Positions 12,274 to 55,296 of a stretch of 59,585 bases of DNA are shown in pieces. This stretch comes from Patescibacteria group bacterium (GTDB lineage Bacteria > Patescibacteriota > JABMPQ01 > JAQVVF01): the NCBI GenBank assembly GCA_028699085.1, contig JAQVVF010000006.1:1-59585 (forward strand). Reading direction: 5' to 3'. The notes beneath the pieces are model-generated. The model had not been told where the DNA came from and made no database searches. It saw only the letters and a program-made list of their open reading frames with translations. Position 1 is the first letter of the stretch. Each line of letters opens with the position of its first letter. Made by a program: the position numbers and the translations under genes.

Positions 12274-13500
12274 ATGGCAACAGAATTTGAATTAGCTATA
12301 GAACAAATTTGTGAAGAAAAAAATTTAAAGAAAGAAGATGTAATCTCAACAATTGAGGCTGCTTTGGCTGCAGCTTTTCGTAAAGATTATGGCAAAAAAG
12401 GTCAATTAATTGAGACTGAATTTGATCCTAAAACTGGTAAAACATTAGTTTTTGATGTTAAAGAAGTTGTGGAAGAAAAAGAAGATCTTGAGAAGGCTGA
12501 AAGACAAGTAACAGTAGAAGAAGGAGAAAAATTGAAAAAAGGCGCAAAAGTTGGCGATATTATTAAAACTGAAATTACTCCAAAAGAGATTTCTTTTGGC
12601 AGAATTGCTGCTCAAACTGCAAAACAAGTTATTATCCAAAAAATCAGAGAAGCAGAAAGAAATACGATTTTTGACGCATACAAGGATAAAGAAGGCGAAG
12701 TTTTGAATGGCACAATACAGCGAATGGAAGGTCAAACAATGTTTGTTGATCTTGGACAAGCTACTGGACTATTATTTCCTACAGAACAAATTAGAGGCGA
12801 AGAATATTCTATAGGACAAAGATTAAAAGTATATTTAGTTGAAGTAAAAGAATCAGCTAAAGGTCCTGAAATTATATTATCTAGGTCTCATCCTGATATT
12901 GTTAAAAGAATGTTTGAACTTGAAGTTCCAGAAATTGCAGCTGGAGCTGTAGAAATTAAAGCAGTTGCAAGAGAAGCTGGAGCAAGAACAAAAATTGCTG
13001 TTGTTTCTCATAAAGAAGAAATTGATCCAATTGGCGCATGTGTCGGTCAAAGAGGGACAAGAGTTCAAACAATTATCAATGAATTAGGCGGAGAAAAGAT
13101 TGATATTATTTCATGGGATGAGAATCCAGTTAAATTTATTACTAATGCTTTATCTCCAGCTAAGGCTATTTCTGTTCAATTGAATGAAGATGAAAAAACA
13201 GCTAAGGTTGAGGTTGTTGAAGATCAATTATCATTAGCTATTGGCAAACATGGCCAGAATGTTAGATTAGCTGTTAAATTGACTGGCTGGAAGATTGATG
13301 TTTTGAAAGAAGAAGGCGCTGAAGAAACAAAGACTGAAGAAAAGAAAGCTGATGGAGCAAAAGACGAAACTAAAAAAGAAGAATCTAAAGATAAGGATGA
13401 AAAAAAGACAGAAGAACCAAAATCAGAGGCTAAAGAGGAAAAGAAAGAAGAGAAGACTGAAGTTAAAAAAGAAGAAAAAACTGAAGAAAAAGCTAAATAA
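12274..13500 (+). CDS. nusA: transcription termination/antitermination factor NusA with K/E-rich tail
   Basis: N-terminal domain, S1 domain (GEVLNGTIQRMEGQTMFVDLG), two KH domains (GACVGQRGTRVQ, AIGKHGQNVRLA). Confidence 0.93.
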   Translation: MATEFELAIEQICEEKNLKKEDVISTIEAALAAAFRKDYGKKGQLIETEFDPKTGKTLVFDVKEVVEEKEDLEKAERQVTVEEGEKLKKGAKVGDIIKTEITPKEISFGRIAAQTAKQVIIQKIREAERNTIFDAYKDKEGEVLNGTIQRMEGQTMFVDLGQATGLLFPTEQIRGEEYSIGQRLKVYLVEVKESAKGPEIILSRSHPDIVKRMFELEVPEIAAGAVEIKAVAREAGARTKIAVVSHKEEIDPIGACVGQRGTRVQTIINELGGEKIDIISWDENPVKFITNALSPAKAISVQLNEDEKTAKVEVVEDQLSLAIGKHGQNVRLAVKLTGWKIDVLKEEGAEETKTEEKKADGAKDETKKEESKDKDEKKTEEPKSEAKEEKKEEKTEVKKEEKTEEKAK

Positions 13501-13533
13501 AACTTTAACAATATAACAATTTAATCTAAGACT

Positions 13534-35136: not shown

Positions 35137-35745
35137 ATGAATATTATAATTCTGTGGTTTATAAGATTTGCCTTTAGTACATTAACCTTATTTGAATTAG
35201 GTAATCTGTTCGGTATTTTTCATTTTGAAATTGATTTTAGCTGGCTTGGACTATCTCTTACAGCTTTAGCTGTTTGGATCGGTCTAGAGTTTGTTCTGTA
35301 TTATGTTAAGAAGAAATTTAACTATACGATTCCATCTTTTGTATTTCTGATCCCTTTGGCAAATATTTTAATTGATTTTTTTGGAGATTTTTGTAAGTTA
35401 TATAGTAGGATTTCTTGGTATGATCAGATGGCTCATTTTTTAGGTGGGGCGTCTGCAGCTGGAGTAACTTTTTTCATAGTCTGTGCATTACTAAAAAGAA
35501 GACGAGTCGATTTTAAAAAATATTTGATTGGTAGCTATGCTTTTTTTGCAGCCTGCTTTCTTGGAACAATCTACGAGCTTGAGGAATATGCAGAAACACT
35601 GTTTTTAGGCAATAATAGACTCGGAGATAGACTTGATACTCCAAATGATATCTTTTTCAATACGATTGGTGCGCTAATCGGAGTATTCATTGTCTATCTG
35701 TATGTTAAACTGACTGACACATTGAGTAAAACCGAAGAGAAATAG
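35137..35745 (+). CDS. polytopic membrane protein (about 202 aa), function unknown
   Basis: Six hydrophobic segments. Conserved-looking WYDQMAHFLGG and DTPNDIFFNTIGA. Start moved from TTG 35107 to ATG 35137. Confidence 0.65.
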   Translation: MNIIILWFIRFAFSTLTLFELGNLFGIFHFEIDFSWLGLSLTALAVWIGLEFVLYYVKKKFNYTIPSFVFLIPLANILIDFFGDFCKLYSRISWYDQMAHFLGGASAAGVTFFIVCALLKRRRVDFKKYLIGSYAFFAACFLGTIYELEEYAETLFLGNNRLGDRLDTPNDIFFNTIGALIGVFIVYLYVKLTDTLSKTEEK

Positions 35746-35786
35746 TTAATTTATAATTTTTAATTTAGTTATTTTGTTATCATATT

Positions 35787-35862
35787 GGGCCTGTAGCTCA
35801 TCTGGTAGAGCGCCTGCTTTGCAAGCAGGAGGTGAGCGGTTCGAGTCCGCTCAGGTCCACCA
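35787..35862 (+). tRNA. tRNA-Ala (anticodon UGC), CCA encoded
   Basis: GGGCCTG TA GCTC ATCTGGTA GAGC G CCTGC TTTGCAA GCAGG AGGTG AGCGG TTCGAGT CCGCT CAGGTCC A CCA, with the G3-U70 identity pair. Confidence 0.95.
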
Positions 35863-37977: not shown

Positions 37978-40893
37978 CTAGCTAATCCTAAATTCTATTT
38001 TGTTGAGGAAAGCTAAGCCGTTAATAACTTTGAATAGGAAACTAGATTTTTTGTTGCTTGACTTATCAGGAACTGTTTTTTGAGGTGTTGTTGGTTTTTC
38101 TGGAGTACTGGCAGCAGCTATAGAAAAAGAGACTTGATTACTAAATATTGCTCTGCCTGTTTCATCAACTGCTGCAGCTTGAACTGAATAAGATCCAGTT
38201 CCAGGATAAGATAAGCTAGTCGAAAATGAATTTCCAGTTGGCGAACCGACCTCATCATAGATAGCGCCATTAAGTAAAAACTGAACCTTCTGTAATGTTC
38301 CAGAATAAGCGACAGTTGCCGTTAAGCTGATTGGAAAATCTTGTTTAGTTAAATTTCCCGAACCTGATGAAGAAAGCGAAATTGAGGAAGCACGATCAAC
38401 TTTTGTTTCAATAGTTACCTGAGAGCTTGCTTTCTGACCAATTTTATCTGTAACTGAGGCCGAAACTGTATGGAAGCCATTTTCGAATCTACCAGTATAA
38501 AATTCTGCTGAATAAGGCTCTGTAGACGCTGAACCGATTGATGTACCGTCTACAGTAAAATCTACGTTTTTAACACCATTTGGCGCAGTAACAGATGCGC
38601 TAACTGTGATAGTACCTTCTTTTATTAAGCCACCTGTTGGAGAAGTGATGCTGATTTTTGGTTTTTTGACAGGACTACAAACATCAGTAGTTTCTTTTGG
38701 AATTTGAGTAATTCCCTTATTATCTTTGCCAGCCCAAGCCTGGACTGCGCTTTCCCAATTGTTGTATTGAGGATCAGCAGCAGGATTTTTAGGAGCTTCG
38801 CCTCTCGGGTTGTCCTTTTCAACATAAAAGAGAATTGAATGAGCGCTACGGATAGTAACTTCTTCGACTGATTCAGGTGGACAATCATCGGTCGCTAATT
38901 TTTTTGTTGTTTTCTCAATCCTAACCTTTTCCTCTGATCCTGATTTACCCATAAGCACGGGCTTGTCAACTTTTATAGGATCATAGCTTTTAAATTCTTC
39001 TACTGGCTGTCCTTCCATTGCTTGCTCCATAAATGAATGCCAAATCGGAGCAGCGACAACAGATCCATCAGCTCCTGAGTTCATTTCGGCGCCACTATTA
39101 TTACCAACCCAAACTCCAGCAGCTAGACTTGGAGTATAGCCAACAGTCCAAGCGTCTTTAAAATTTTCAGTTGTTCCTGTTTTAACGGCAACCTGTCGAT
39201 CAGCTAGTCTTAAGTTTGGTGCAGAACCGAAGACCATTTGACGAGCATTAGTATCTGACAATATGCTTGAAAGCTGACGAGCAACCTGATCTTCAACAAT
39301 ACGCTTTGCATCAGCCTTTGAATTATCTTGGATGACCTTGCCTTTGCGATCGATAACCTTAAGAATAGCTTTTTTGTCATTTTTTAAGCCATCATTTGCA
39401 AAAACGCTATATGCAGAAACTTCATCAAGAAGCTTAACCTCGCCACCTCCTAGAACAAGAGATAATCCATAATTACTAGAATCGCCAAGAGTTGTTATTC
39501 CAAGCTGATGAGCAAAATCAATTGTGTTTTCAAGGCCAGCTAAGTAAAGAGTCTTTACTGCTGGAATGTTTAGAGAATTAGTTAATGCTTGACGCATTGT
39601 TACAGGACCGTGTGTTTGGCCATCATAATTGCTAGGTTTGTAGTTATTGCCGAAATCAGTTGGAACATCATAAAGAATTGTATCAGGGGTATAGCCCTTT
39701 TTAAGCGCTAAAGCATAAACAATCGGCTTGAAAGATGATCCAGGTTGACGATCTCTAATAGTGACATTAACATTGCCTTCATTTTCTTTGTCAAAATAGT
39801 CTTTTGAGCCTTGCATAGCCAAAATCTCACCAGTTTTTGGATCAACTGCAGCTAAGGCAGCATTTGTTGCTCCATAACCATAATTGCGATCAACACCTTC
39901 TGGGATTACTCTTTCAGCTATTTTCTGCAATCTCATATCAAGCGTTGTGTAGACCTTATAGCCACCTTTTTGAACTTCTTTTTCGCCGTACTCTTCAACA
40001 AGCAAATCTTTTACGTACATTACAAAGTGAGGAGCAATTATGCCTTCTTGCTTTTCCACAAAAGCAAATTTCTCTTGTTTTGCCTTGTTTGCTTCTTCTT
40101 TGGTTATATATTTATCATCAACCATACGGTCAAGAATCCATTCTTGGCGAGCTTTTAAAGCGTCTGTATTAGACCCATATGGAGAATAATATGTTGGCGC
40201 TTGCGGAATTGCAGCAAGAGTAGCAGACTCGGCAAGCGTCAAATCTTTGGCTTTTTTGCCATAAAAAGTTTCAGCAGCAGATTCAATGCCAAAAGCATTA
40301 GATCCGTAAGGGATTTCGTTTAAATACATCTGTAAAATGTCTTTTTTTGTATACAGGGCTTCAATTTCAACTGACAAGATCAGCTCTTTAATTTTTCTAG
40401 TATATGTCTTTTCTGCTGACAAAGCAGTGTTTTTTACCAATTGCTGTGTGATTGTTGAGCCTCCTACTCTTTCATCGCTTTTTGTATTTTTTAGCGCAGA
40501 ACGTATAATTCCAATAGGATCAAAGCCAAAATGATGATAAAAGTTTTTATCTTCAGCCGATATTGTTGCTTCTTGAATATATTCTGGCATTTCAGATAGC
40601 GGGATCAAGGTTCTTTTTACGCCACCGTGGATTTCATAAAGAAGTGTTTCACCAGAACGATCAAATATTTTGGTTGATTCGGAAGTATTCTTTGAGTTTA
40701 TTTTTCGTGGAGATGGTAGATCTTTCGCATAATAAGCAAAAATTCCGCCAAAAACAAGCACAAAAAAGGCAACAATGCCAAGCAGAAAGATAATAATCTT
40801 TCTCTGTCTTTCTTTATTAATTTTTGGCTTGTTTCCGCCGTTATTGCCGATATTAATCACTTTTTTCTGATTACTACTTGGCATTTTAAACAT
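37978..40893 (-). CDS. class A penicillin-binding protein (PBP1A-type) with C-terminal Ig-like repeats
   Basis: GT51 motifs EDKNFYHHFG and GGSTITQQL. Transpeptidase motifs SSFKP, SLN, KTGTT. About 250 aa of beta-rich repeats (VSASVTAPNGVKNVDFTVDG ...) at the C-terminus. Confidence 0.92.
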   Translation of the reverse strand: MFKMPSSNQKKVINIGNNGGNKPKINKERQRKIIIFLLGIVAFFVLVFGGIFAYYAKDLPSPRKINSKNTSESTKIFDRSGETLLYEIHGGVKRTLIPLSEMPEYIQEATISAEDKNFYHHFGFDPIGIIRSALKNTKSDERVGGSTITQQLVKNTALSAEKTYTRKIKELILSVEIEALYTKKDILQMYLNEIPYGSNAFGIESAAETFYGKKAKDLTLAESATLAAIPQAPTYYSPYGSNTDALKARQEWILDRMVDDKYITKEEANKAKQEKFAFVEKQEGIIAPHFVMYVKDLLVEEYGEKEVQKGGYKVYTTLDMRLQKIAERVIPEGVDRNYGYGATNAALAAVDPKTGEILAMQGSKDYFDKENEGNVNVTIRDRQPGSSFKPIVYALALKKGYTPDTILYDVPTDFGNNYKPSNYDGQTHGPVTMRQALTNSLNIPAVKTLYLAGLENTIDFAHQLGITTLGDSSNYGLSLVLGGGEVKLLDEVSAYSVFANDGLKNDKKAILKVIDRKGKVIQDNSKADAKRIVEDQVARQLSSILSDTNARQMVFGSAPNLRLADRQVAVKTGTTENFKDAWTVGYTPSLAAGVWVGNNSGAEMNSGADGSVVAAPIWHSFMEQAMEGQPVEEFKSYDPIKVDKPVLMGKSGSEEKVRIEKTTKKLATDDCPPESVEEVTIRSAHSILFYVEKDNPRGEAPKNPAADPQYNNWESAVQAWAGKDNKGITQIPKETTDVCSPVKKPKISITSPTGGLIKEGTITVSASVTAPNGVKNVDFTVDGTSIGSASTEPYSAEFYTGRFENGFHTVSASVTDKIGQKASSQVTIETKVDRASSISLSSSGSGNLTKQDFPISLTATVAYSGTLQKVQFLLNGAIYDEVGSPTGNSFSTSLSYPGTGSYSVQAAAVDETGRAIFSNQVSFSIAAASTPEKPTTPQKTVPDKSSNKKSSFLFKVINGLAFLNKIEFRIS

Positions 40894-43864: not shown

Positions 43865-43929
43865 AAGAAGAAAAACAAATAATAGTATTGTTTTTTACTT
43901 TTTATTATTATTTTTTAATTTTTTTGAAC

Positions 43930-44661
43930 GTGTCTGGTCATTCGAAATGGAGTACAATCAAGAGAAAAAAAGGAGTTCGTGATATCGTTCGTGGCAAGGT
44001 TTTCACGAAGATGGCAAATTTGATCGCAATTGCGGCAAGAGAAGGTGGTAGCGACCCAGAAGCTAATTTTAAGTTGCGATTAGCAATTGATAAGGCGAGA
44101 AAAAATAATGTTCCTTTGGAAAATATTGATCGGGCGATTAAAAAGGGAGTGAGTGGGGCTGGCAGTGATTTGGCTGAGCAGATTATTTACGAGGCATATG
44201 GTCCAAATGGGGTTGCGTTAATGATCGAGGTTGTAACAGATAGTCGAAACCGAACGGTGCCGGAATTGAGAAAAATATTGTCAGATAATAATGGTAGGCT
44301 TGTCGAAAATGGCAGCGTGGCATGGATGTTTGAAAAGAAAAATGTAATTGAAATTGATCTTCAAAAGAATAGGATATCGGAAGATGAAATGACTTTGTTG
44401 CTTATAGAGAACGGCGCATTAGATGTTGTAAGAAAGGATAATTTTTTAATATCATTTTGGGATTCAGATGATTTAAAGAAGGCTAAAGACTATTTAGGGG
44501 AAAAGAATATTATCGTGGATTTAGTTGAGTCGCGGTTGGAGGCAAAAAATATTATTATGGATGTAGATAAAAACGTCTTGTCCAAAATTAATAATTTGTT
44601 TGCTGAATTGGAAGATCAGTCTGATGTTATACATATTTATGCCAATGTTAAGCTTAAATAA
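43930..44661 (+). CDS. yebC: YebC/PmpR-family transcriptional regulator
   Basis: (V/M)SGHSKWSTIKRKK start motif. GTG start at 43930 preferred over the ORF-track ATG at 43888. Confidence 0.9.
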   Translation: MSGHSKWSTIKRKKGVRDIVRGKVFTKMANLIAIAAREGGSDPEANFKLRLAIDKARKNNVPLENIDRAIKKGVSGAGSDLAEQIIYEAYGPNGVALMIEVVTDSRNRTVPELRKILSDNNGRLVENGSVAWMFEKKNVIEIDLQKNRISEDEMTLLLIENGALDVVRKDNFLISFWDSDDLKKAKDYLGEKNIIVDLVESRLEAKNIIMDVDKNVLSKINNLFAELEDQSDVIHIYANVKLK

Positions 44662-44681: not shown

Positions 44682-45152
44682 ATGAAAATATTAGGAATTG
44701 ATCCTGGATTGGCAATTGTTGGTTTTGGAGTCATTGTAAAAAATAAAAATAAAATAAAGTTGTTAGCGAGTGGATGCGTATTGACGTCAAAGGACGAGTC
44801 TGTTTATGAGCGAATTGGAGCAATTTACGAAGATATTGTTGGTTTGATCGAAAAATATAAGCCTGATGTTGTAATCTGTGAGGAACTTTTTTATTTTAAG
44901 AATGCGAAAACTGTAATAAATGTTGCGCAAGCAAGAGGAGTAATCATGCTGGCTGCGAAAAAAAAGAGTGTGCCGTTTTTTGAATATACTCCATTACAGA
45001 TAAAACAAGCTTTGACTGGCTACGGAAGAGCTGACAAGAAACAGATTCAGGAAATGACAAAGGGCTTGCTTGGATTGAGCGGATATTTAAAGCCTGATGA
45101 TGTTGCAGATGCAGTTGCTTCAGCAATTTGCCATGCTAATTGCGTGCGATAA
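44682..45152 (+). CDS. ruvC: Holliday junction resolvase RuvC
   Basis: ILGIDPGLAIVGFG, CEELFYFKN, GYGRADKKQ, DVADAVA. Confidence 0.93.
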   Translation: MKILGIDPGLAIVGFGVIVKNKNKIKLLASGCVLTSKDESVYERIGAIYEDIVGLIEKYKPDVVICEELFYFKNAKTVINVAQARGVIMLAAKKKSVPFFEYTPLQIKQALTGYGRADKKQIQEMTKGLLGLSGYLKPDDVADAVASAICHANCVR

Positions 45153-45285
45153 ATATTTTTGAGAAGATCTTGACAATAATTTTATTTTTTTATTTTTTTT
45201 TGCTATAATTTTGGTATAAAACTTGACAGAAATAGATGGTGATGTTGGATTTTGAATTTTTATGTGACAATTTTTTAAAAAAGAC

Positions 45286-46812
45286 ATGAACAAAAAGAGT
45301 ATTCTATGTGTATCGTTTGCGATTTTTATGACTGTAATTGTGTTGTTTGGTTTTGTCGTAAAAGCTCAAGATAATTCATTATCTTTAGATCTTCGAGCGT
45401 CTGCTGGTGGAGATAAAAATGTAGCTGTTGGCAAAAAAGTAGTTTTTGATGCATCAAAAACTACTGATAATAGAAATAGTGCTTATATTGGGTATTCTTG
45501 GGATTTTGGTGACGGAACTTATTCGGAAGGGAGAGAAGTTATTCATAGCTATAATTTACCTGGTGAATATAAAGTTGTTCTTAATGTTAATAATGGATAT
45601 GAAACTGATAAAGATGAAATTACAGTAAGCGTATATAAAGACCTTGTTCTTCTGGTAGCTGATAAAACCCCAACCTCTGATCAAATTAGAGATTTGAAAA
45701 GAGATGCTGCTAGGAATCAGGCTTTGCTTGTTGCTATTATAAATCGTCAAGGAGAGGCGGACTATGTTATTGAAGGAGCTTTATCTAATGCTTTGCTTGA
45801 AGCAAAAGAAGATGTCCAAAATGCTGACATTCTAATTCTTTGGACTTCTGGCAGTTTGGGATTGAACGCGATGTCAAAGTTTGCTCAATCGGCCGGTAAT
45901 TTAGCTGATTTTAGGATGGATCAGAAAGGCATTGTAAGTGCTGGAAAGAATGTTAAAGCTAATGCTAGGATTGCGCAGTCAACTTATGATGTTTTAAAAC
46001 CAGAATATATATTATTAGTTAAAGATAGTTATTTAAATTCTGTTATTAGTTCACATAATTCGGATGATTTGTTATCAAAAGTTCAATCTGATAATGCTGA
46101 GCATACTCTGATTGGAAAGCATTCGGAAAGGGCGGTCACAAAACTTGGAGCAACTAATTTCTTAAGTTATTCGATTAATTATTTAATAAACAGGGGCGTT
46201 GCGATTGATAATTTGTTTTTATTATTAATGTTGCCAATAATTGCAACATTAATTGCTTTTTTAAGGCAAATATTAGGAATTAAAACCTTTGGTATCTATA
46301 CGCCGACAATTATTACTTTGTGCTTTATCTCTACTGGTTTGAAATATGGTTTGACCATTTTTATTGTTATCTTATTGGTAGCAACTGTGCTGAGGTTTTT
46401 GTTGAGAAGATTTAAATTGCTTTATCTACCGAGAATGGCTATCGTTTTGTGCGTTGTTGCATTAGTGTTGCTGTTCTTGTTTATGGTTGGAGCATATTTT
46501 GATAAGACTGGGATGATAACTTTGTCTATTCTGCCGATTCTAGTATTGATAATTATGGTGGAGAAATTCATTGCTGTTCAAATAGAAAAAGGAGGTACTA
46601 CTGCAATTTTGTTATCTTTAGAAACTATATCGGTGTCTGTGGTCTGTTATTGGATTGTAAATTGGGAATGGTTTAAGACATTGATTTTGTCATATCCGGA
46701 ATTGGTTCTGCTGACAATCGTAGCAAATATCGCTTTGGGAAAATGGACAGGATTGAGATTATCTGAATATTTTAGATTTAAAGCGCTATTAAAGAAAAAT
46801 TCGAAGTCCTGA
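45286..46812 (+). CDS. membrane protein: signal anchor + PKD domain + unknown domain + C-terminal 7TM module of the '7TM fused to inactive transglutaminase' type
   Basis: PKD motif WDFGDGTYSEGREVIHSY. The C-terminal TM bundle carries LRQILGIKTFGIYTPTII, LLYLPRMAIVL, IMVEKF and GKWTGLRLSEYFRF, which recalls PF14402. Confidence 0.65.
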   Translation: MNKKSILCVSFAIFMTVIVLFGFVVKAQDNSLSLDLRASAGGDKNVAVGKKVVFDASKTTDNRNSAYIGYSWDFGDGTYSEGREVIHSYNLPGEYKVVLNVNNGYETDKDEITVSVYKDLVLLVADKTPTSDQIRDLKRDAARNQALLVAIINRQGEADYVIEGALSNALLEAKEDVQNADILILWTSGSLGLNAMSKFAQSAGNLADFRMDQKGIVSAGKNVKANARIAQSTYDVLKPEYILLVKDSYLNSVISSHNSDDLLSKVQSDNAEHTLIGKHSERAVTKLGATNFLSYSINYLINRGVAIDNLFLLLMLPIIATLIAFLRQILGIKTFGIYTPTIITLCFISTGLKYGLTIFIVILLVATVLRFLLRRFKLLYLPRMAIVLCVVALVLLFLFMVGAYFDKTGMITLSILPILVLIIMVEKFIAVQIEKGGTTAILLSLETISVSVVCYWIVNWEWFKTLILSYPELVLLTIVANIALGKWTGLRLSEYFRFKALLKKNSKS

Positions 46813-46900
46813 TTTTAGTAATAAAAATTTAAATATATGAAAAACTAAAGATTGCAAATATGCTGGTTTTTTATGTTTTTATGTTTTTATTTTTTTAAGT

Positions 46901-48328
46901 ATGAGGGCAACAGACATTTTGGGCATGAACGAGCGTAATTTACGTTATATTCGTGTCTATAATCGACGTGATGACATTAGGGTCGTTGATGATAAATTAG
47001 CGACAAAAGAAATTTTAAGAAAAACCGGAATAAAGACTCCGCGTGTTTATGGTGCGATTCAGACATCTCGTGATTTAAAAACTTTTGATTGGAATAAACT
47101 GCCAATGAGTTTTGTTGTCAAACCTGATCATGGTTTTGGAGGAGAAGGCGTAATGGTTCTTAGAGCATCGGAAAAAAAGAAGGAATTTATGCAGAAAACG
47201 ATTGATAAAAGAGTGTGGTTAAAAAGCGACAATGAAGATGTGACTTTTGAAAATTTAAAATCGCACATCCTTGATACTTTAGACGGAAGATTTTCACTTG
47301 CAGGCATACCAGATGTTGCTTTTTTTGAAAGAAAGATTATTTTACATCCATTATTGAAAAAGTATGTTTATAAAGGCATTCCTGATGTTCGAGTGATCGT
47401 ATTTAATAAAATACCAGTAATGTCGATGTTAAGGTTACCAACTAAATTGTCAAAGGGCAAAGCGAATTTAGCTCAGGGTGCGGTTGGTGTGGGAGTTGAT
47501 ATCGCGACTGGCGTTTCGACTCATGCAATTGTTAAGGTTCCGAAAAGAAGCGAAGTGATAACTCATCCAGATACAGGGCAGAAATTAGTTGGTTTTCAAG
47601 TGCCTTTTTGGGATGAAATACTAAAGATGTCGATAGAAGCTCAGCAAGCATCCGGATTGGGTTTCATTGGAGTTGATATTGCAATTGATAGGACTTTTGG
47701 TCCTGAAATTCTGGAATTGAATGCAAGGCCAGGATTAGAAATTCAAAATGCTAATTTATTAGGTTTAGCAAGGAGATTAGAAAGAGTGTCTGGTTTGGCA
47801 ATTAGGACAGTAGATCATGGTGTTCGAATTGCAAAAGAACTTTTTGGGGCAGTCTCAACCAAGAAGGCAGAGGTTTTAGGCAGGAAGGTGCTTGGATCAA
47901 TTGAAAAAGTAAAAGTATTAAGCAAGAATGGTAAAAGTACTTTTGAGATATTAGCGAAAGTAGACACTGGAGCTGCTTCTACATCAATTGATTTTGTGTT
48001 AGCAAAGAAACTTGGCTATGGGGACTTGTTGGATTTGATTAACGATTATAAATTAGATTCGAAGATGACTGATACTCAGGCAGAAAAAGCAGCAAAAAAA
48101 GCAGAAAAAGAGTTAAAAGCATTGTCTGCAGATGTTGAAAAAGTCAATTATGTTCGATCTGCGCATGGTTTAACCTTGAGACCGTACATAAAGTTAGCTT
48201 TTTTTGTGGCAGGTGAGAAAAAGATTTCAATCGTCAATCTTTCTGAAAGAGGGCTTTTAAAATATCAAATGATTATTGGCATGAAAGATATTAAAGGATA
48301 TTTAGTGAACGTGGAAAAGAAACATTAA
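46901..48328 (+). CDS. alpha-L-glutamate-ligase-related ATP-grasp enzyme fused to a retropepsin-like (DTGA) domain
   Basis: The N-terminus LGMNERNLRYIRVYNRRDDIRVVDDKLATKEIL is typical of TIGR02291. ATP-grasp core FVVKPDHGFGGEGV, GVDIAID..ILELNARPG. C-terminal KVDTGAASTSID resembles the RimK-associated protease family PF05618. Confidence 0.75.
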   Translation: MRATDILGMNERNLRYIRVYNRRDDIRVVDDKLATKEILRKTGIKTPRVYGAIQTSRDLKTFDWNKLPMSFVVKPDHGFGGEGVMVLRASEKKKEFMQKTIDKRVWLKSDNEDVTFENLKSHILDTLDGRFSLAGIPDVAFFERKIILHPLLKKYVYKGIPDVRVIVFNKIPVMSMLRLPTKLSKGKANLAQGAVGVGVDIATGVSTHAIVKVPKRSEVITHPDTGQKLVGFQVPFWDEILKMSIEAQQASGLGFIGVDIAIDRTFGPEILELNARPGLEIQNANLLGLARRLERVSGLAIRTVDHGVRIAKELFGAVSTKKAEVLGRKVLGSIEKVKVLSKNGKSTFEILAKVDTGAASTSIDFVLAKKLGYGDLLDLINDYKLDSKMTDTQAEKAAKKAEKELKALSADVEKVNYVRSAHGLTLRPYIKLAFFVAGEKKISIVNLSERGLLKYQMIIGMKDIKGYLVNVEKKH

Positions 48329-48339
48329 TAATACAAAAT

Positions 48340-49290
48340 ATGAAAGAAAATAGAGAATTAGTTTGGGAATCAATAAAAAAAATGGGCGGTTTAGTCTCTG
48401 AAATTGATAAAGAGAGAACTGTTGACGAGGCTTGTTTTGGAGAAAAGAAATTTTTGTTCTCGCACAAGTTTTTTGTTCGAGCAAAATATAATTTTTTGAG
48501 AGATTCTGCTTTATATAAAGACTTGATGGCAAAACTTTTGTTAAGGAAAAAAATTGCAACTCCAAAAACAGTTTTTATTGATGAAAAGATAACAGATGAT
48601 GGAGTAAAAAAAATAATTTCAGGATGGGATTATCCGATAGTTGTAAAATATGCTGAAGGATCAAAAAGCAAAGGGATTTTTATGAATTTGAAAGATCAGG
48701 AATCTGTATTGAAGGTTGTAAGAGAGCAAATTGGGATTTATAAAAAAATGGTTATACAGGAAATGGTTTTTGGAGATGAATATAGAATTTTAATTTTGGA
48801 TGATAAATTGATTGGAGCATTGAAAATGGTTCCGCCATTTGTTGTTGGCGATGGTAAGAAAAAAGTATTGGATTTAATGCATGAAAAACAAGAAAAAACT
48901 GTTCAGCGAACAAAGGAAGATGAGGCATTGAAAATCATTTTGCAAGAACAAAACGAAGATTTTGATTCGGTGCCGGCAAGTGATAAAAGGGTTTATTTAA
49001 GGCGGAATTCTTGTCTTGACGAAGGTGGAATTACGGTTGATTGTACAGACGAAATTGATGAAAAGATGATTGAGATTTGCCATCAAGCAGCTGAAGCTGC
49101 TGGAATTAAATTGGCAGGTATTGATGTAAAATGCAAAGATTTAAAAGGCTCGTTTGAAAATAAGGATAAAAATTTTTCGATTATTGAAGTTAATAGTAAG
49201 CCAGATTTAAATATTCATTATTATCCAAACGAAGGCAAGCCAAGAGACGTGATAACAGAAATTTTAAAATATATTGTAAATAAATTATGA
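48340..49290 (+). CDS. ATP-grasp ligase (cyanophycin-synthetase N-domain / RimK-like)
   Basis: YPIVVKYAEGSKSKGIF, VIQEMVFGDEYRILILD, VVGDGKKKVLDLM, GIDVKC..IIEVNSKPDL. Confidence 0.65.
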   Translation: MKENRELVWESIKKMGGLVSEIDKERTVDEACFGEKKFLFSHKFFVRAKYNFLRDSALYKDLMAKLLLRKKIATPKTVFIDEKITDDGVKKIISGWDYPIVVKYAEGSKSKGIFMNLKDQESVLKVVREQIGIYKKMVIQEMVFGDEYRILILDDKLIGALKMVPPFVVGDGKKKVLDLMHEKQEKTVQRTKEDEALKIILQEQNEDFDSVPASDKRVYLRRNSCLDEGGITVDCTDEIDEKMIEICHQAAEAAGIKLAGIDVKCKDLKGSFENKDKNFSIIEVNSKPDLNIHYYPNEGKPRDVITEILKYIVNKL

Positions 49291-50741
49291 TTTTAATTAC
49301 AAATAAGGAAGATATTAAGAAAGCATTAGAAGATAATAATTTTAAATTGTTTGGAATTGGAGGGTATCCTTCAACGCGTTCAGAAATTTGGCCATTAGTA
49401 AATGATTATGAAGTTATTTGTGGAAATCCTTCTGGCGAATTAGACGCGATAAAACAGCGGACAAAAGTCTCTGTTTTTTTGCAAACAGAAAATAATAAAA
49501 TTCCAGAAAAAAAACCGCAAGTTATTTTGAGTGATAAATCCGTTGTTGAACACATAAATAGTTCTGGTAAAAACAAGAAGGTTGCTTTGTATTTTTATAA
49601 GCCGACAGAAAAAGTCGCGGAGATTTGTAAAAAGAATAATTGGATTATGATTGCAAATAAGCCGGAATTGTTTGAAAAATATAGCAGTAAGCTAGCATTT
49701 TATAAAATTTTGGAAGATTTAAAAATAAATCGAGATATAAAAATTTTTGATTTGGAAAAATTAGATGAAAATTTAGATAGCTTGTTTGAGATTTGGGGTG
49801 AAAAAATTGTAATACAGTTTGTTGATGAGGGCGGAGGAAGAGGAACTTTCTTTTTTAAGAAAGAAGAGCGTAATAAAATTATGGATAGAATTGCGGAAAG
49901 ATTTGAATTGATTGATAAGGAAAAAAGCGCGGGCATGAAAATCGTTGCTAGCAGATTTGTAGAAGGCCCAGTTTTGAGTATTACAGGCTGTATAACAAAA
50001 GATAATGGAATATTGACGTCATACTGCCAATACCAAATGATTGATATCCCAGAGGCCATAAAAAACAAGAAAGATGCAGTGGGAGTTTTCTGCGGGCATG
50101 ATTGGTCGCTTTCAAAGAACATTCCTGACAAAATAAATAAAAAAGGAATTGAATTGATCACTAAAATTGGTGAAGAACTAAAAAAGGCTGGAATGCTAGG
50201 AATTTTTGGCTTGGATTTGATTTGGGACAAAGAAAAAGAAGATTTGATACCATTAGAAATAAATGTTAGATTATTAGGAACTTATCCAACAACTGTTTAT
50301 GTTCAGCTTGATAAAGTCGAAGTGCCATTAGTAGCTTTTCATTTGCTTGATTTTTTAGGAATAGATTACAAGATAAAAAATGAAGAGGTTTTTAGAAAAG
50401 ATAAGATCAGAAATGGCGCTCATTTGTTGCTTTTTAATCCAACTGGATTTGATGCAAAATGTGGTAAGGAATTAAAAGGTGGCGTATATAAGATGGTTGA
50501 CGGAAAAATGGAATGGGTGAGGCTTGGTGTTGAGCTTGCTGATATTCAAAATAAGGGAGAGTTTATTTTGACAGAAGGCGTTCCGATCAAGACTTTAGTT
50601 TATAAGAGAAATGGAAAATTATTAAAAGTATTAGCTAAAGAAGAATTATCTGTTAATGATGCAAGAGAACTGAATTCTTGGGCAAAGCAAATTGTTGAAG
50701 TTATTTATAAAGAATTAAATTTACAACCTAATGAAAAATAA
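49287..50741 (+). CDS. ATP-grasp ligase, divergent (484 aa)
   Basis: KIVIQFVDEGGGRGTFFFKK, VASRFVEGPVLSITG, GIFGLDLIWDKEKEDLIPLEINVRLLG. The start overlaps the upstream stop (ATGA). Confidence 0.55.
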   Translation: MILITNKEDIKKALEDNNFKLFGIGGYPSTRSEIWPLVNDYEVICGNPSGELDAIKQRTKVSVFLQTENNKIPEKKPQVILSDKSVVEHINSSGKNKKVALYFYKPTEKVAEICKKNNWIMIANKPELFEKYSSKLAFYKILEDLKINRDIKIFDLEKLDENLDSLFEIWGEKIVIQFVDEGGGRGTFFFKKEERNKIMDRIAERFELIDKEKSAGMKIVASRFVEGPVLSITGCITKDNGILTSYCQYQMIDIPEAIKNKKDAVGVFCGHDWSLSKNIPDKINKKGIELITKIGEELKKAGMLGIFGLDLIWDKEKEDLIPLEINVRLLGTYPTTVYVQLDKVEVPLVAFHLLDFLGIDYKIKNEEVFRKDKIRNGAHLLLFNPTGFDAKCGKELKGGVYKMVDGKMEWVRLGVELADIQNKGEFILTEGVPIKTLVYKRNGKLLKVLAKEELSVNDARELNSWAKQIVEVIYKELNLQPNEK

Positions 50742-51639
50742 AAAAGTAGCAATTTTTTTGCCAAGCATAGATCCAAATTCTAAAAAGAAAACTGGATTTT
50801 TGAGCAAAGAAGAAGTTTTAGAAGTAGAAGAAAAATTAAAAAATAATTCTGAAATCGAATTCCTGGGAAATGTCAATTTTGATAATTTGAAGGTTTTGGA
50901 CACTAATTTTTGGTGTGGCGATGTTAATTTGAGTGAATGTGATTTATTTTTTTGGTATGGTCCAGGCATGAAAAAAAATATGGATGAGCTTAAGGCATTG
51001 TCAAAAGTAACAAAAGTTTTGAAAAGTCCGGAATCTTTAGATATTGTTGATGATAAATTTAAAGCTCATGTAGCTTTAAAAAAACAAGGCTTGCCTGTAT
51101 CTGATTTTGCATTAATTCCTTATAATAATTTAGAGCTGATGGAAAAAATTATGAAGGATTGGAAGACTGTTGTTGTGAAGCCTAGATTTGGTAGCTTTGG
51201 TAGAGGAATAATAAAAGTGAGCGATTTTGAAACTTTAAGAGATATCGCAGGAATGTTAAGGATGGAGCATAAACAAGAGAAAATTTTTGTAGAAAGATTT
51301 GTAGAAAATGACCAAAAAGCTTGGATGAGCACGACAATCATTGATGGCAAGGTTGTTTATGGCTATAGAAAAAAAGAAGAAAAATTTGCTGGCTGGAAGG
51401 TGTATGATATTAAGGCAAAAGGTGGAGGAGCTTATTATGTTGATCCAGCACCCGTACGAGAATATGCAGAAAAAGCAGCAGCAATTTTGGATAAATCTAT
51501 TTGCGGCTTTGATTTTATTAAAACAGCAGATGGCTATAAAATTGTTGATGAAAATAATTTTCCTGGTTTTTATCCAGAAGCATTTAAAGATGCGGGCGTT
51601 AAAGCAACTGATTTAATTGTTAATTTAATAGTAAAATAA
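50731..51639 (+). CDS. RimK-type ATP-grasp ligase
   Basis: VVVKPRFGSFGRGIIKV, FVERFVEND, ICGFDFIKTADGYKIVDENNFPGF. Overlaps the upstream gene by 11 nt. Confidence 0.7.
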   Translation: MKNKKVAIFLPSIDPNSKKKTGFLSKEEVLEVEEKLKNNSEIEFLGNVNFDNLKVLDTNFWCGDVNLSECDLFFWYGPGMKKNMDELKALSKVTKVLKSPESLDIVDDKFKAHVALKKQGLPVSDFALIPYNNLELMEKIMKDWKTVVVKPRFGSFGRGIIKVSDFETLRDIAGMLRMEHKQEKIFVERFVENDQKAWMSTTIIDGKVVYGYRKKEEKFAGWKVYDIKAKGGGAYYVDPAPVREYAEKAAAILDKSICGFDFIKTADGYKIVDENNFPGFYPEAFKDAGVKATDLIVNLIVK

Positions 51640-51644
51640 TTATT

Positions 51645-52643
51645 ATGTTTGAATTAGAGAGATATTCTGGCAATCCAATACTAAATCCTATTAAGGATCA
51701 TGTCTGGGAATCGAAAATGGTTTTTAATCCAGCCGTGGTTTTAAAGGACAATAAAATCCATGTAATTTACCGTGCTAGAGGAGAGCATGAATTTAAAGGA
51801 ATTTTGATTTCAAGGCTTGGTCATGCAATTTTTAAAGATGATGGGGTAACATTGGAAAAGAGATTTGAAAATCCTGTTTTTGAACCTGAAGAATGGTATG
51901 AACCAGCTGGTTGCGAGGATCCAAGGATAACAAAGATTGATGGAAAATATTATTTGTTGTATACTGCTTATTCAGGCACAGAAATAGATCCTTTTTTAGG
52001 TTTGGAAAGAGTCAATATTGCAGTTGCAACAACAATGGATTTTGTTGATTGGCACAGACAAGGCTTATTATTACCTGAGGTAGAAAAACCGGAAAAAAAT
52101 GGGGTATTGTTCCCTGAAAAAATTAATGGTTATTATGTTTGTTATTATAGAATCGATCCGCATATTTATGTGGCGTATTCAAAAACATTAGAGCATCCTG
52201 TTTGGAGAGGACATAAAAAAATTATTTCTCCAAGGAAGGGGATGTGGGATAGTGAGAAAATTGGAGCAGGAGCACCGCCGATAAAAACTGATTTAGGCTG
52301 GCTGTTCATTTATCATGGAGTCGACCGAAAGGGACCTTCAAGACTAAAAATTAAAAAAACTGGATATGGGACGGTTGATTATGATAGAACTTATCGATTA
52401 GGTGTAATGTTGATTGATAAAAATAATCCTGAAAAAATATTATATCGTTCTGAAGGATTTATTTTGGAGCCAAAAGAGGATTATGAAAAGATGGGAATGA
52501 TTCCAAACGTTGTTTTTACTTGTGGAGCTGCTGTTGTTAGAGAAAAACTTCTTGTTTATTATGGCGGTGCTGACACTGTGATTGGTTTAGCGACATGTAA
52601 GATGGCCGATTTGTTGAAAGCGATCCAAAATAAATCGATTTGA
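51645..52643 (+). CDS. glycoside hydrolase family 130 protein (beta-mannoside phosphorylase-like)
   Basis: NPILNP..WESKMVFNPAVV, CEDPRITKIDGKYYLLYTAYSG, GAPPIKT..GWLFIYHGV, VYYGGADT. Confidence 0.8.
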   Translation: MFELERYSGNPILNPIKDHVWESKMVFNPAVVLKDNKIHVIYRARGEHEFKGILISRLGHAIFKDDGVTLEKRFENPVFEPEEWYEPAGCEDPRITKIDGKYYLLYTAYSGTEIDPFLGLERVNIAVATTMDFVDWHRQGLLLPEVEKPEKNGVLFPEKINGYYVCYYRIDPHIYVAYSKTLEHPVWRGHKKIISPRKGMWDSEKIGAGAPPIKTDLGWLFIYHGVDRKGPSRLKIKKTGYGTVDYDRTYRLGVMLIDKNNPEKILYRSEGFILEPKEDYEKMGMIPNVVFTCGAAVVREKLLVYYGGADTVIGLATCKMADLLKAIQNKSI

Positions 52644-52668: not shown

Positions 52669-53862
52669 ATGACAAGACAATTATTTGGAAGTTTAAAAAG
52701 GAAAAAATTAGGTGTATGTTTTGTTTCAAGCTATCCGCCTCGCGAGTGCGGAATTGCAACCTTTACCTCTTTTCTTAAAGAAGCAGTAAAGAAAAATTTG
52801 CCCAAGGTCAAATTTAGAATTATTGCGATTGATGAACCTAGAAAAAGAAGAAAATACACGAATAGAGTAATTAAGGTTGTAAGAAGAGATAACCTTGAGG
52901 ATTATATTGAAGCAGCGGAAATTATTAATAAAAATAAAGATATCGATTTAGTCAGCGTACAACATGTTTTTAGCTTGTTTGGTGGCAATGATGGAGAACT
53001 AATCTTGGAGTTTCTAAAAAGATTGAAGAAGCCTTGCGTGACAACAATGCACATGGTTTATCAACCGACAAAGAAGCCTCACAAATTTGAAGTAGTGGAA
53101 ACTAATTTTGTTAAAATTACAAAAGAAATTGTAAAATATTCAGCAAAAATTGTAGTAATGATTCAACCAGTAAAAGATTTGTTGGTTTACAAATATAAAG
53201 TACCAAGAAATAAAGTTGTGGTAATACCACATGGGTTGCCAAATATTGAAAAACAAAATCCGGAAAAATATAAGAAAAAATTAGGATTTGTTGGCAAAAA
53301 AATTATTTCAACTTTTGGTTTGATCAGGCAGAAAAAAGGCTTGGAATATGTAATCTATGCAATGCCGAAGATATTAAAGAAATATAAAGAAGCAATATTT
53401 TTAGTATTAGGCGAATCACATCCAGCCAGAACAAGAACGTATTATGATTTTTTGAAAAAAGAAGTAAAAAGATTGAAGCTTGAAGATAACGTTGTCTTTA
53501 ATGAGACTTATCTGACCTATAAAGAGATTATTAGATATTTATTAGCTTCAGATATCTTTGTAACGCCGTATTTAGTTCCAGAACAAACAAGCAGTGGAGT
53601 CGTATCATATGCGATGGGTTGCGGAAAAGCAATTGTAGCGACAAAATTTTTATATGCTAAAGATGTTTTATCTGATGGCAGAGGAAAATTGGTTAATTTT
53701 AGAAATTCGCGTCAGATTTATGAAGAAATAATGTATTTATTCTCTCATCCAAAAGTAAAAAAGAGGATTGAAGATAGAGCATACAAATATGGTCAGACAA
53801 TGATTTGGGAAGAAGTGGCAAAAAATTATATTGAATTGTTTTTTAAGGTTTTAAGCAAATAA
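52669..53862 (+). CDS. glycosyltransferase family 4 (GT-B)
   Basis: SSYPPRECGIATF N-terminus, plus the C-terminal E-x7-E-like region PEQTSSGVVSYAMGCGKAIVAT. Confidence 0.8.
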   Translation: MTRQLFGSLKRKKLGVCFVSSYPPRECGIATFTSFLKEAVKKNLPKVKFRIIAIDEPRKRRKYTNRVIKVVRRDNLEDYIEAAEIINKNKDIDLVSVQHVFSLFGGNDGELILEFLKRLKKPCVTTMHMVYQPTKKPHKFEVVETNFVKITKEIVKYSAKIVVMIQPVKDLLVYKYKVPRNKVVVIPHGLPNIEKQNPEKYKKKLGFVGKKIISTFGLIRQKKGLEYVIYAMPKILKKYKEAIFLVLGESHPARTRTYYDFLKKEVKRLKLEDNVVFNETYLTYKEIIRYLLASDIFVTPYLVPEQTSSGVVSYAMGCGKAIVATKFLYAKDVLSDGRGKLVNFRNSRQIYEEIMYLFSHPKVKKRIEDRAYKYGQTMIWEEVAKNYIELFFKVLSK

Positions 53863-53872
53863 TTTTAAATAT

Positions 53873-55048
53873 ATGACAAAAGATTTGAAAGAAATGAATA
53901 TTATTTTGCTTTCCTCATTTCCTCCTCGTGAGTGTGGAATTGCGACATACGCAACTCATTTATTTTCTGCGCTTAAGAAAACTTTGCCGGAATTAAAAAT
54001 AATTGTTCTAGCAGTTGACGAAAGAAAAAGACCACAAAAATATGAAGATCTTGTGAAACATGTTATAAAAGATGAATCTGTTGAGTCATATCAAAAAGCT
54101 GCAGAATATATTAATGAATCAGGCGCTGGTTTGGTTTGCTTGCAGCATGAATTTGGGATTTACGGTGGTTTTGATGGTACTCTTGTTATAGAGATGATGA
54201 AAAAAATTAAAGTACCGATTGTAACAACTTTACACACTGTTCCAATAACAAAAAAAGCAAAACGTAGAGATACGAGATTAGCTATTCTTAAGGAAATTAT
54301 TAAATATAGCAAAAGAGTTCTATTAACTACCGAATATGCTAAAGAATGCTTGAAAAAAGAAGCAGGAGCTCCTGATAGAAAATTGAAAGTTATTTTGCAT
54401 GGTACGCCAGATGTTAAATTGATTGATCCAGATGAGGCAAAGAAAAAAGTTGGTTTAGAAGGCAAAAAAGTTATTTCAACTATTGGGATGATCAATCCAC
54501 ATAAGGGAATCGAAAAAATAGTTGAAGTCTTGCCGGCAATTGTTAAAAAGCATAAAAATGTTGTTTATCTTATCGCTGGCGAGGTGCATCCAAGAAAGAA
54601 AAAAGAAGTTGATGCATATTTGGCAAGAGTTTATGCGAGAGCAAAAGAGCTGGGTGTTTATAACCATATAAAAAGAGTAGATAAATATTTTACTGAAGAA
54701 GAATTAGTAACTTATTTTCAAGCATCAGATATTTTTATGACGATTTATGATGTTCCAGAACAAGTATCATCTGGAACGCTTGCTTACGCGATTGCATGTG
54801 GTAGGTGTGTGGTTTCAACTCCTTATATTTATGCGAAGGAATTAATTGGTGAAGATGTGCGAGGATTTTTAGTAAAGTTTGGAGATTTGCCTGCTATTGC
54901 TTCTAAAGTAAATTATATTTTAGATAATCCATTAGTGCAGCAAGAAATGGAAAAGAAAATTTATGAATTTGGTAGAAGGACAACTTGGGAGGCGGTAGCA
55001 AAGAAACATTTTGAAATTTTTGAAGAAGCAGTGCAGGATTTTTTTTAA
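53873..55048 (+). CDS. glycosyltransferase family 4 (GT-B), paralog of the preceding gene
   Basis: SSFPPRECGIATY and PEQVSSGTLAYAIACGRCVVST; collinear with 52669-53862. Confidence 0.8.
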   Translation: MTKDLKEMNIILLSSFPPRECGIATYATHLFSALKKTLPELKIIVLAVDERKRPQKYEDLVKHVIKDESVESYQKAAEYINESGAGLVCLQHEFGIYGGFDGTLVIEMMKKIKVPIVTTLHTVPITKKAKRRDTRLAILKEIIKYSKRVLLTTEYAKECLKKEAGAPDRKLKVILHGTPDVKLIDPDEAKKKVGLEGKKVISTIGMINPHKGIEKIVEVLPAIVKKHKNVVYLIAGEVHPRKKKEVDAYLARVYARAKELGVYNHIKRVDKYFTEEELVTYFQASDIFMTIYDVPEQVSSGTLAYAIACGRCVVSTPYIYAKELIGEDVRGFLVKFGDLPAIASKVNYILDNPLVQQEMEKKIYEFGRRTTWEAVAKKHFEIFEEAVQDFF

Positions 55049-55267: not shown

Positions 55268-55296
55268 AAAAAACTGCGTCAAGAAACGCAGTTTTA
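55268..55296. terminator. bidirectional intrinsic terminator
   Basis: A-run, ACTGCGT caagaa ACGCAGT, TTTT. Sits between convergent operons. Confidence 0.7.

Follow-up and report, generated by a model that had tools for sequence, protein, structure and literature searches.

Introduction

The rloABC genes of Pseudomonas aeruginosa, named in 2025, encode a secreted retropepsin (RloA), an inactive transglutaminase joined to a seven-transmembrane (7TM) bundle (RloB) and a cytoplasmic ATP-grasp ligase (RloC) (PMC12239564, Lormand et al., mBio 2025). Here we describe a five-gene cluster from a Patescibacteria group bacterium that encodes a relative of this system, in which ligase and protease are joined in one polypeptide. 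The cluster occupies positions 45286-51639 on the + strand of the window, by which we mean the whole stretch of DNA that was analysed, the 59,585 nucleotides of contig JAQVVF010000006.1 (positions 1 to 59,585 of the forward strand; assembly GCA_028699085.1). All coordinates are given in window numbering, and the five + strand open reading frames (ORFs) of the cluster are called g1 to g5.

Crystal structures of RloA have been solved and the protease cuts runs of at least eight glutamates; the catalytic D48 lies in a basic substrate channel that is lined by K46, R114 and R137, and neither the R114A nor the R137A variant is functional (PMC12239564). The system has a role in hypo-osmotic tolerance: a mutant without any of the three RloA paralogues (rloA1-3) does not survive in low-salt medium. 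Its cell shape, biofilm formation and tolerance of beta-lactams are disturbed as well, and these defects are relieved when rloB or rloC is deleted too (PMC12239564). In Vibrio, the VxrAB system, which responds to cell-wall stress, strongly induces Rlo, and 96% of the RloB matches are found in Proteobacteria, while the study assigns no product to RloB and RloC of Pseudomonas (PMC12239564).

A second precedent is the pair of RimB and RimK. RimB, a cytoplasmic homologue of RloA, trims polyglutamate, raises the ATPase activity of RimK four-fold and is needed for efficient synthesis of poly-alpha-glutamate; a hybrid of both proteins, RimBK, which occurs mainly in Flavobacteriales and Rhodobacterales, is active and carries RimB at residues 1-163 (PMC11957791, Little et al., JBC 2025).

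Results and Discussion

The second gene of the cluster, g2 (46901-48328, 475 amino acids), encodes an RloC-type ATP-grasp ligase and a RimB/RloA-type retropepsin in a single chain. The ligase domain spans residues 2-298 (46904-47794), is matched by TIGR02291, below the trusted cut-off, and by PF14397 (ATPgrasp_ST, 243.9 bits versus a cut-off of 31.4, 2e-72) and, judged by these profiles, clearly falls into the RloC-type clade. Residues 331-471 (47891-48313) form the retropepsin-like domain (PF05618) with its active-site motif DTGA at 47963-47974, the codon of D355 being 47963-47965 according to a check of the translation, and the NCBIfam retropepsin models for RloA, RloA2 and RloA3 match residues 323-472. 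Both features, a TIGR02291-type start and a C-terminal DTGA retropepsin of the PF05618 family, had been assigned to g2 in a sequence-only reading of this DNA, and they are borne out by the profile matches and the conserved D355. Single-sequence searches of the PDB with the protease domain and the ligase domain returned noise or nothing; a profile of 14 g2 homologues matched the RloA structures 9G59 (E 2.5e-5) and 9G58 (E 3e-5) as well as RimK (about 6e-5). On the RimK family model TIGR00768, g2 scores 54 bits and g5 72.3 bits versus a cut-off of 143.4. The N-terminus of g2 (MRATDILGMNERN...) is not hydrophobic and carries no signal peptide, and the fused protease should therefore act in the cytoplasm, unlike the secreted RloA.

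Residue conservation was assessed across 85 fusions. The ATP-grasp catalytic residues K74, E143, D259, E272, N274 and R276 are identical in all of them (85/85), as are D355-T356-G357 of the retropepsin active site, G460 of the psi-psi-Gly motif and R450. Alignment to 9G58 equates K353, D355, R427 and R450 of g2 with K46, D48, R114 and R137 of RloA, with a spacing of 23 residues between the two arginines in both proteins; position 353 is K or R in 85/85 fusions, and R427 is kept in 82/85 (96%). Because the catalytic residues are conserved across these fusions, the ligase and the protease domain are both predicted to be active, the protease keeping its determinants for acidic substrates.

Directly upstream, g1 (45286-46812, 508 amino acids) encodes a 7TM protein that resembles RloB but has no transglutaminase domain. 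A signal-anchor helix at residues 3-23 (45292-45354), seen as a hydrophobic stretch after MNKK and as a helix in the AlphaFold2 model, precedes a PKD domain at residues 38-117 (45397-45636; PF18911 8e-18, PF00801 8e-13), which is predicted to be extracellular and resembles the PKD domain of ColG (2y72) in Foldseek with an E value of 1.9e-6 and a template-modelling (TM) score of 0.88. Residues 119-276 (45640-46113) make up an alpha/beta three-layer ectodomain of alternating beta-alpha elements, modelled at a predicted local distance difference test score (pLDDT) of 82-90, and residues 285-507 (46138-46806) form the 7TM bundle with its conserved cytoplasmic tail GKWTGLRLSEYFRF at G489-F498; the C-terminal tail ends in basic residues. 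The AlphaFold2 model, calculated with 27 homologues, has a mean pLDDT of 77 and displays the anchor helix, the PKD sandwich, the beta/alpha domain and seven helices, the latter between residues 292 and 507. Pfam assigns the bundle to PF14402 (7TM_transglut, 1e-36, 127.1 bits versus a cut-off of 25, residues 285-501), and the NCBIfam RloB model NF052267 matches this part of g1 only, at model positions 295-507, leaving its N-terminal 294 positions unmatched. Twelve bundle residues, R327, Q328, K333, R370, R383, E426, Q432, E472, N481, R491, E494 and R497, are invariant among the 27 homologues. No informative Foldseek match was obtained for the bundle, PKD matches dominating the list. The architecture previously read from the sequence, a signal anchor with a PKD domain and a C-terminal PF14402 bundle, thus stands in Pfam, NCBIfam and AlphaFold2, and so does the absence of the transglutaminase, in place of which the model shows the alpha/beta three-layer domain.

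For this middle domain, Foldseek yielded only weak, generic Rossmann-like matches (TM <0.3) and no transglutaminase or papain-like fold. A phmmer search of 1.84 billion representatives retrieved 68 clusters, nearly all of them proteins of 500-545 amino acids with the domain at about positions 120-300, and as far as sequence comparison reaches the domain is private to the g1 family, which offers no hint at what it does. A degenerate transglutaminase was considered for this region and rejected on the grounds of the three-layer alpha/beta fold and the weak, generic character of the Foldseek matches. Proteins with the g1-type architecture form more than 120 homologous clusters, every named one from the candidate phyla radiation (CPR, Patescibacteria).

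With rloABC, the CPR form shares the PF14402 7TM bundle (RloB), an ATP-grasp ligase of the RloC-type clade (PF14397, with TIGR02291 below its trusted cut-off) and the PF05618 retropepsin (RloA), encoded by adjacent genes, and g2 conserves the catalytic aspartate together with the residues matching those that bind polyglutamate in RloA. It differs in that the protease forms the C-terminal part of the ligase polypeptide and should be cytoplasmic, whereas RloA is separate and secreted; in that the 7TM protein of the window carries a PKD and a private alpha/beta domain in place of the inactive transglutaminase, most CPR relatives having no such domain at all; in the additional ATP-grasp ligases encoded after the fusion (one to three where present); and in its host, the Patescibacteria. 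The RimK-RimB pair and RimBK likewise combine, by pairing or fusion, a cytoplasmic ATP-grasp glutamate ligase with a retropepsin, and for Rim it has been shown that the retropepsin cleaves poly-alpha-glutamate and stimulates the ligase. In RimBK, however, RimB is N-terminal while the protease of g2 is C-terminal, the g2 ligase falls into the RloC-type clade and not the RimK family, and the Rim system has no 7TM partner. The CPR form is thus a homologue of the Rlo core that lacks the secreted stand-alone protease and the 7TM-borne transglutaminase of rloABC and departs from RimBK in ligase family and domain order. Rather than a new category of system, it is a variant of Rlo that is widely conserved and for which we found no description in the published literature, which was searched by Pfam/TIGRFAM accession, for RloC/rloABC, and for Patescibacteria in combination with ATP-grasp/RimK, polyglutamate and glutamate ligase. 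The sequence-only reading had proposed an enlarged, rearranged relative of the 7TM/ATP-grasp/aspartic-protease triad, with which the family matches agree. Its statement that no product or function is known for this triad is outdated, since rloABC now has genetics, crystal structures and a polyglutamate-cleaving protease (PMC12239564), and the NCBIfam models of RloA and RloB match g2 and g1.

The CPR form is widespread. Scanning the species representatives of GTDB returned at least 569 loci with a g2 relative, a count that may include non-fused RloC genes, and the best 80 of these loci come from CPR metagenome-assembled genomes, judging by record titles of which some are evidently wrong, and match the fusion over essentially its whole length. 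One of these 80 (L012) shows an apparent frameshift. Of the 84 loci compared for gene order, L005 and L009 lie on the same contig, which leaves 83 independent ones. Fusions of the g2 type make up more than 120 full-length protein clusters of 45-93% identity, all named ones from Patescibacteria, and the fusion that had been taken for a peculiarity of the window is, in view of these clusters and the best 80 loci, the standard form in this group. In the window, the 5' neighbours of the cluster are dnaA, dnaN, yebC and ruvC, and the order YebC-RuvC-7TM-fusion recurs in almost every locus, the 7TM gene standing directly upstream of the fusion in 81/84 loci with a median gap of about 18 nucleotides. 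The arrangement is not a product of chance, as it recurs in about 80 other genomes, and the expected co-conservation in related genomes holds for the syntenic pair of 7TM protein and ligase-protease fusion, which is the conserved core. The position of this pair right after yebC-ruvC, often near dnaA-dnaN, is an unusually rigid synteny across classes, seen at nearly all of the 85 loci. Its 7TM member comes in a long form of about 500-560 amino acids with PKD, alpha/beta and 7TM domains, present in the window and about 15 loci, and in a bare form of about 215-230 amino acids without ectodomain in Moranbacteria-type genomes.

A class A penicillin-binding protein (transglycosylase, transpeptidase and Big_7 domains) is encoded on the - strand at 37978-40893, a few kb from the cluster, and one is also found near the cluster in L001, L004, L005 and L086. 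This proximity is worth mentioning given the cell-wall phenotypes of rlo mutants and may be plain synteny.

Downstream of the core, the window carries three further ATP-grasp genes, g3 (48340-49290, 316 amino acids), g4 (49287-50741, 484 amino acids) and g5 (50731-51639, 302 amino acids). The ORF list confirms five genes packed head to tail, with intergenic distances from g1 to g5 of 88, 11, -4 (an ATGA overlap) and -11 nucleotides, and the overlaps of 4 and 11 nucleotides suggest translational coupling of g3, g4 and g5. The motifs quoted for the cluster in the earlier reading, WDFGDGT, GIKTFGIYTPTII, LLYLPRMA, MVEKF, GKWTGLRLSEYFRF, LGMNERNLRYIRVYNRRDDIRVVDDKLATKEIL and KVDTGAASTSID, are all present.

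The g3 protein matches the cyanophycin synthetase model TIGR02068 (4.4e-52, 177 bits versus a cut-off of 850) at model positions 209-471 of 862, the GshAB model (1.6e-40, 139 bits versus 425) and also the model for N-acetylglutaminylglutamine synthetase. Its full-length matches in the PDB are CphA1 (7lgm, 8e-31; 8fxh) and the C-terminal ligase of GshF (3ln7). These profile and structure matches place g3, a stand-alone ATP-grasp ligase, in one clade with the G domain of cyanophycin synthetase (CphA1/CphA2) and the C-terminal domain of GshF. It differs from CphA1 in consisting of only 316 residues, the N domain and the Mur-ligase M domain both being absent. For g4, no Pfam match exceeded the threshold, and the only match, PRK06524 (2.8e-25), reaches 88 bits versus a cut-off of 684. 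AlphaFold2 nevertheless models it as a complete three-domain ATP-grasp enzyme (pLDDT 93.3), a fold it shares according to Foldseek with PurD (2yrx, 1e-16), biotin carboxylase and BacD/YwfE at TM scores of 0.55-0.6 and at only 11-15% identity, with no equivalog cut-off reached; the model thus places g4 in the PurD/PurK/biotin-carboxylase/L-amino-acid-ligase structural class. Its Mg/ATP residues D310, E324, N326 and R328 are invariant in 21 homologues, and every named member of the 46 homologues found comes from CPR. The best NCBIfam matches of g5, MptN (77 bits) and the RimK family (72 bits), lie at about 1e-21 and both stay under their cut-offs; Pfam RimK gives 45 bits, and the Pfam model Dala_Dala_lig_C is exceeded with 29.7 versus 24. 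On these scores g5 is a RimK/MptN/LysX-like ligase below every curated NCBIfam cut-off. ATP-grasp motifs are seen as IIEVNSKPD in g3 and IVDENNFPG in g5.

No significant pairwise BLAST similarity exists among the four ligases of the cluster, in keeping with their earlier description as mutually divergent, and a recent duplication was rejected as their origin on this ground. The housekeeping equivalogs Ddl, PurK, PurD, GshB, carbamoyl-phosphate synthase and biotin carboxylase all score far below their NCBIfam cut-offs on g3-g5, as illustrated by Ddl (TIGR01205, 31 versus 246), PurK (TIGR01161, 30 versus 318) and GshB (PRK05246, 18 versus 272); the three proteins are accordingly not ordinary housekeeping ATP-grasp enzymes. 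The division into a cyanophycin-synthetase-like g3, a long divergent g4 and a RimK-like g5 was likewise supported by NCBIfam and by AlphaFold2 with Foldseek, and over the whole cluster the PF14402, TIGR02291, PF05618, PKD and four ATP-grasp assignments all hold in Pfam, NCBIfam and AlphaFold with Foldseek. A role in anti-phage defence was considered and rejected, as PADLOC gave no match at E <= 0.01 for any of the five proteins.

Accessory ligases were counted in the 70 loci whose sequence continues for more than 4 kb past the fusion. A first pass with phmmer undercounted them and an iterated hidden Markov model (HMM) of the g3 family turned into a general ATP-grasp detector, so the counts are based on iterated family HMMs and the families were split again by BLAST clustering. 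Directly after the fusion, no extra ATP-grasp gene is found in 10 of the 70 loci, one in 23, two in 24 and three in 13; 60/70 loci thus have one to three ATP-grasp genes, and not other gene types, in this position. BLAST clustering separates them into at least five unrelated families. The commonest (c0, 49 members) is RimK/TTL/YheCD-like and matches the Pfam TTL model, the g3-type family has 42 members in 33 loci, and a family of bona fide RimK-like ligases (c2) has 39 members. The g4-type family occurs in six loci; the g5-type family is confined to the window and to L001/L002, its relative of 93% identity, and the same holds for the combination of g3, g4 and g5. The idea that four ligases act successively in a fixed pathway is therefore not tenable, as the extra ligases vary from none to three and stem from at least five unrelated families.

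Several loci contain gene fusions or complete enzymes in this region. In L007, a complete CphA-like gene of 852 amino acids (11595-14153 of that locus; ATP-grasp, Mur_ligase_M and Mur_ligase_C) lies directly 3' of the fusion. The ligase-protease of L030, L049 and L080 has a third domain, a MATCAP/DUF1704 metallocarboxypeptidase (PF08014, 3e-47), while L053 has a tandem double ligase, and P0272, part of a different multi-ligase cluster, joins a g4 homologue to a RimK-like ligase. The accessory content points to peptide-chain chemistry, as far as the family assignments can tell. The triple fusion of L080 (9986-12388 of that locus) is an 800-residue protein of RloC-type ATP-grasp, retropepsin with the motif DTGE and MATCAP, encoded on a complete 1.14-Mb CPR chromosome; L030, L049 and L075 are likewise listed with this form.

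With confidence that we would call evenly balanced, we propose that acidic poly-amino-acid chains are made and trimmed in the cytoplasm by a system that is coupled to a 7TM partner and has an envelope-related role; the product is what we infer. The ligase domain of g2 would spend ATP on alpha-linked acidic, glutamate-rich chains, which might be free peptides or be built on an acceptor. The protease part of g2 would dimerise and cut long acidic runs in cis, which would set chain length and speed up turnover as RimB does for RimK, and g3, g4 and g5 might use other residues to prime, extend or decorate the chain, which would give a lineage-specific product. The 7TM protein could dock the enzyme at the membrane and pass on or present the product at the surface, where the PKD and alpha/beta ectodomain would handle it. 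By analogy with rloABC of Pseudomonas, the physiological role may be envelope or osmotic homeostasis.

Several points weigh against this proposal. The retropepsin assignment by PF05618 is narrow, with 27.7 bits just over the cut-off of 27 at residues 331-471, and TIGR02291 (285.8 bits, E 3.5e-85) remains under its trusted cut-off of 314.2. The polyglutamate-like nature of the product is read only from protease specificity and residue conservation, and to our knowledge RloC has never been assayed. With a cytoplasmic protease here and a secreted RloA in Pseudomonas, the logic of the two systems may differ. Export by PF14402 proteins is speculation, given the lack of an informative Foldseek match for the bundle, and the absence of the ectodomain from the 7TM protein of most CPR relatives weakens the notion of surface presentation. 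The accessory ligases, finally, vary so much that some may serve other pathways.

A bolder form of the proposal, which we regard as doubtful, is a modular, template-free ATP-grasp assembly line in Patescibacteria. An RloC-retropepsin docked on the 7TM protein would, together with combinatorial, lineage-specific ligases and carboxypeptidases, assemble an acidic hetero-polypeptide for delivery to the surface. Its composition would differ by lineage, and it might serve these wall-dependent, host-attached, ultra-small cells as a coat or as an attachment or osmoprotective layer.

A possible, if rather unlikely, alternative is reversible modification of protein tails, in which the ligases would attach residues such as glutamate to side chains or the C-terminus of a specific protein, for instance ribosomal protein S6, the 7TM protein itself or another envelope protein, and the retropepsin, in some loci with MATCAP, would erase them. 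RimK and RimB act in this manner on RpsF, post-translationally polyglutamylated proteins have been considered as possible RloA substrates (PMC12239564), and a cytoplasmic protease suits an intracellular protein target. The scheme would be a bacterial analogue of the tubulin tail cycle, in which ligases (TTL/TTLL) add to an acidic tail and peptidases (MATCAP, VASH, CCP) remove residues from it; this is an analogy only, to which the MATCAP-type C-terminal carboxypeptidase fused in L030, L049 and L080 and the TTL match of the commonest accessory family lend some weight, although MATCAP is missing from the window. Among the loci examined, however, the cluster holds no conserved gene that could encode the acceptor, and rpsF is absent from the window. 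The tail of g1 is basic and does not end in glutamate, g2 and g5 both fall short of the cut-off for the RimK family, the CphA-like accessory gene points to synthesis of a free polymer, and the tight 7TM linkage is left unexplained if the ribosome is the target.

We consider it improbable that the product of the cluster is a poly-amino-acid that is stored in the cell or serves there as an osmolyte, be it cyanophycin-like, polyglutamate or a small peptide such as N-acetylglutaminylglutamine amide (NAGGN), as an amino-acid bank for a scavenging cell with the 7TM protein only regulating or sensing. The nearest relative of g3 is the G domain of cyanophycin synthetase, it also matches the N-acetylglutaminylglutamine synthetase model, L007 has its complete CphA-like gene, all enzymes are cytoplasmic, and glutamate and polyglutamate have been discussed as osmolytes (PMC12239564). 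On the other hand, g3 lacks the N and M domains of CphA1 and stays at 177 bits where 850 are required, g3-type genes are missing from about half of the loci while the 7TM gene is nearly always there, and no cyanophycinase-type gene was seen in the loci examined.

The 133-nucleotide intergenic region between ruvC and g1 (45153-45285, + strand) is AT-rich and contains perfect TTGACA and TATAAT hexamers, with promoter-like sites at 45128-45188; by these consensus matches only, it is the likely promoter region of the cluster. Beyond 51639, the co-directional run continues without a terminator through a GH130 glycoside phosphorylase gene (51645-52643) and two GT4 glycosyltransferase genes (52669-53862 and 53873-55048), all + strand and identified by Pfam and NCBIfam matches, with spacings of 5 nucleotides after g5 and then 25 and 10 nucleotides. 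It ends at the sole strong terminator, a bidirectional intrinsic one at 55270-55295 with a hairpin of 10-11 pairs and T runs on each side, which faces tyrS on the - strand. The extent of the run thus had to be corrected from the five genes to this point, and the GH130 and GT4 genes are probably co-transcribed with g1-g5 here. On account of the Pfam name 'sugar-transfer associated ATP-grasp', they had been considered as core members, which was rejected because they lie beside the cluster in only 2/85 loci (L001 and L003); they are best seen as a separate neighbouring module outside the conserved core. The GH130 gene is beta-mannoside phosphorylase-like, the two GT4 genes are paralogues, the module is kept with the cluster only in this sub-lineage, and in L003 it is followed by a GalT-like gene.

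That the genes of the cluster are joined by mere synteny, with g1-g2 as an Rlo-like pair and g3-g5 as unrelated cell-wall, thiol or cofactor ligases in the same operon of a compact genome, fits the high variability of the accessory set (none in 10/70 loci), the Dala_Dala_lig_C score of g5, the gene density of CPR genomes, in which short gaps say little, and the equally tight packing of the GH130/GT4 genes outside the core, yet it is very improbable in view of the housekeeping equivalogs (Ddl, PurK, PurD, GshB, carbamoyl-phosphate synthase) far below cut-off, the ATP-grasp genes directly after the fusion in 60/70 loci, the Rosetta-stone fusions that join ligases to each other and to peptidases, and the overlaps of g3, g4 and g5.

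Three further features of the window are worth reporting. At 9831-10519 (- strand), a group I intron of about 600 nucleotides (Rfam RF00028, 9890-10096, 85 bits) interrupts the anticodon loop of a tRNA gene. ARAGORN makes no call for this gene, whose 5' half (GGGCCTGTAGCTCAGTGG...) starts at 10519 and whose 3' half (...GGTTCGATCCCAACCAGGCCCA) ends near 9831; it is not a tRNA-Leu because the variable loop is short, and the anticodon is ambiguous. An ORF of 124 amino acids on the opposite strand inside the intron region (10113-10487, + strand) narrowly misses the HNH endonuclease cut-off (21.3 versus 21.4 bits) and may encode an intron-associated homing endonuclease. At 32796-35862, a 16S rRNA gene of about 1620 nucleotides (versus a model of 1533) is followed by tRNA-Ile, an ORF of 212 amino acids (35107-35745) without a Pfam match and tRNA-Ala. 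The remaining 24 kb of the window after tRNA-Ala contain no 23S rRNA gene, and the rRNA operon is therefore unlinked, with a protein gene between its spacer tRNAs. The listed yebC ORF (43888-44661) begins with a TTG start and a hydrophobic leader of 15 residues (MFFTFYYYFLIFLNV) before the canonical SGHSKW; its true start is probably the internal GTG (Val) codon just upstream of SGHSKW.

Conclusion

The Rlo system of Pseudomonas affects antibiotic tolerance, biofilm formation and cell shape and is of clinical relevance. The CPR form provides independent clues to the chemistry of RloB and RloC: protease and ligase act from one cytoplasmic polypeptide, the transglutaminase domain is dispensable, and the recruitment of cyanophycin-synthetase-like and RimK-like ligases and of a MATCAP carboxypeptidase hints at synthesis and trimming of poly-amino-acid chains. 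The single-chain ligase-protease is also a simpler object for in vitro work than the three-compartment system of Pseudomonas. Should the modular assembly line outlined above be real, the same reasoning would also tell what rloBC makes in Pseudomonas and Vibrio. For the Patescibacteria themselves, the core is kept at a fixed position across about 80 genomes that have shed most biosynthesis, which implies that it fills an important and so far undiscussed function in these bacteria.

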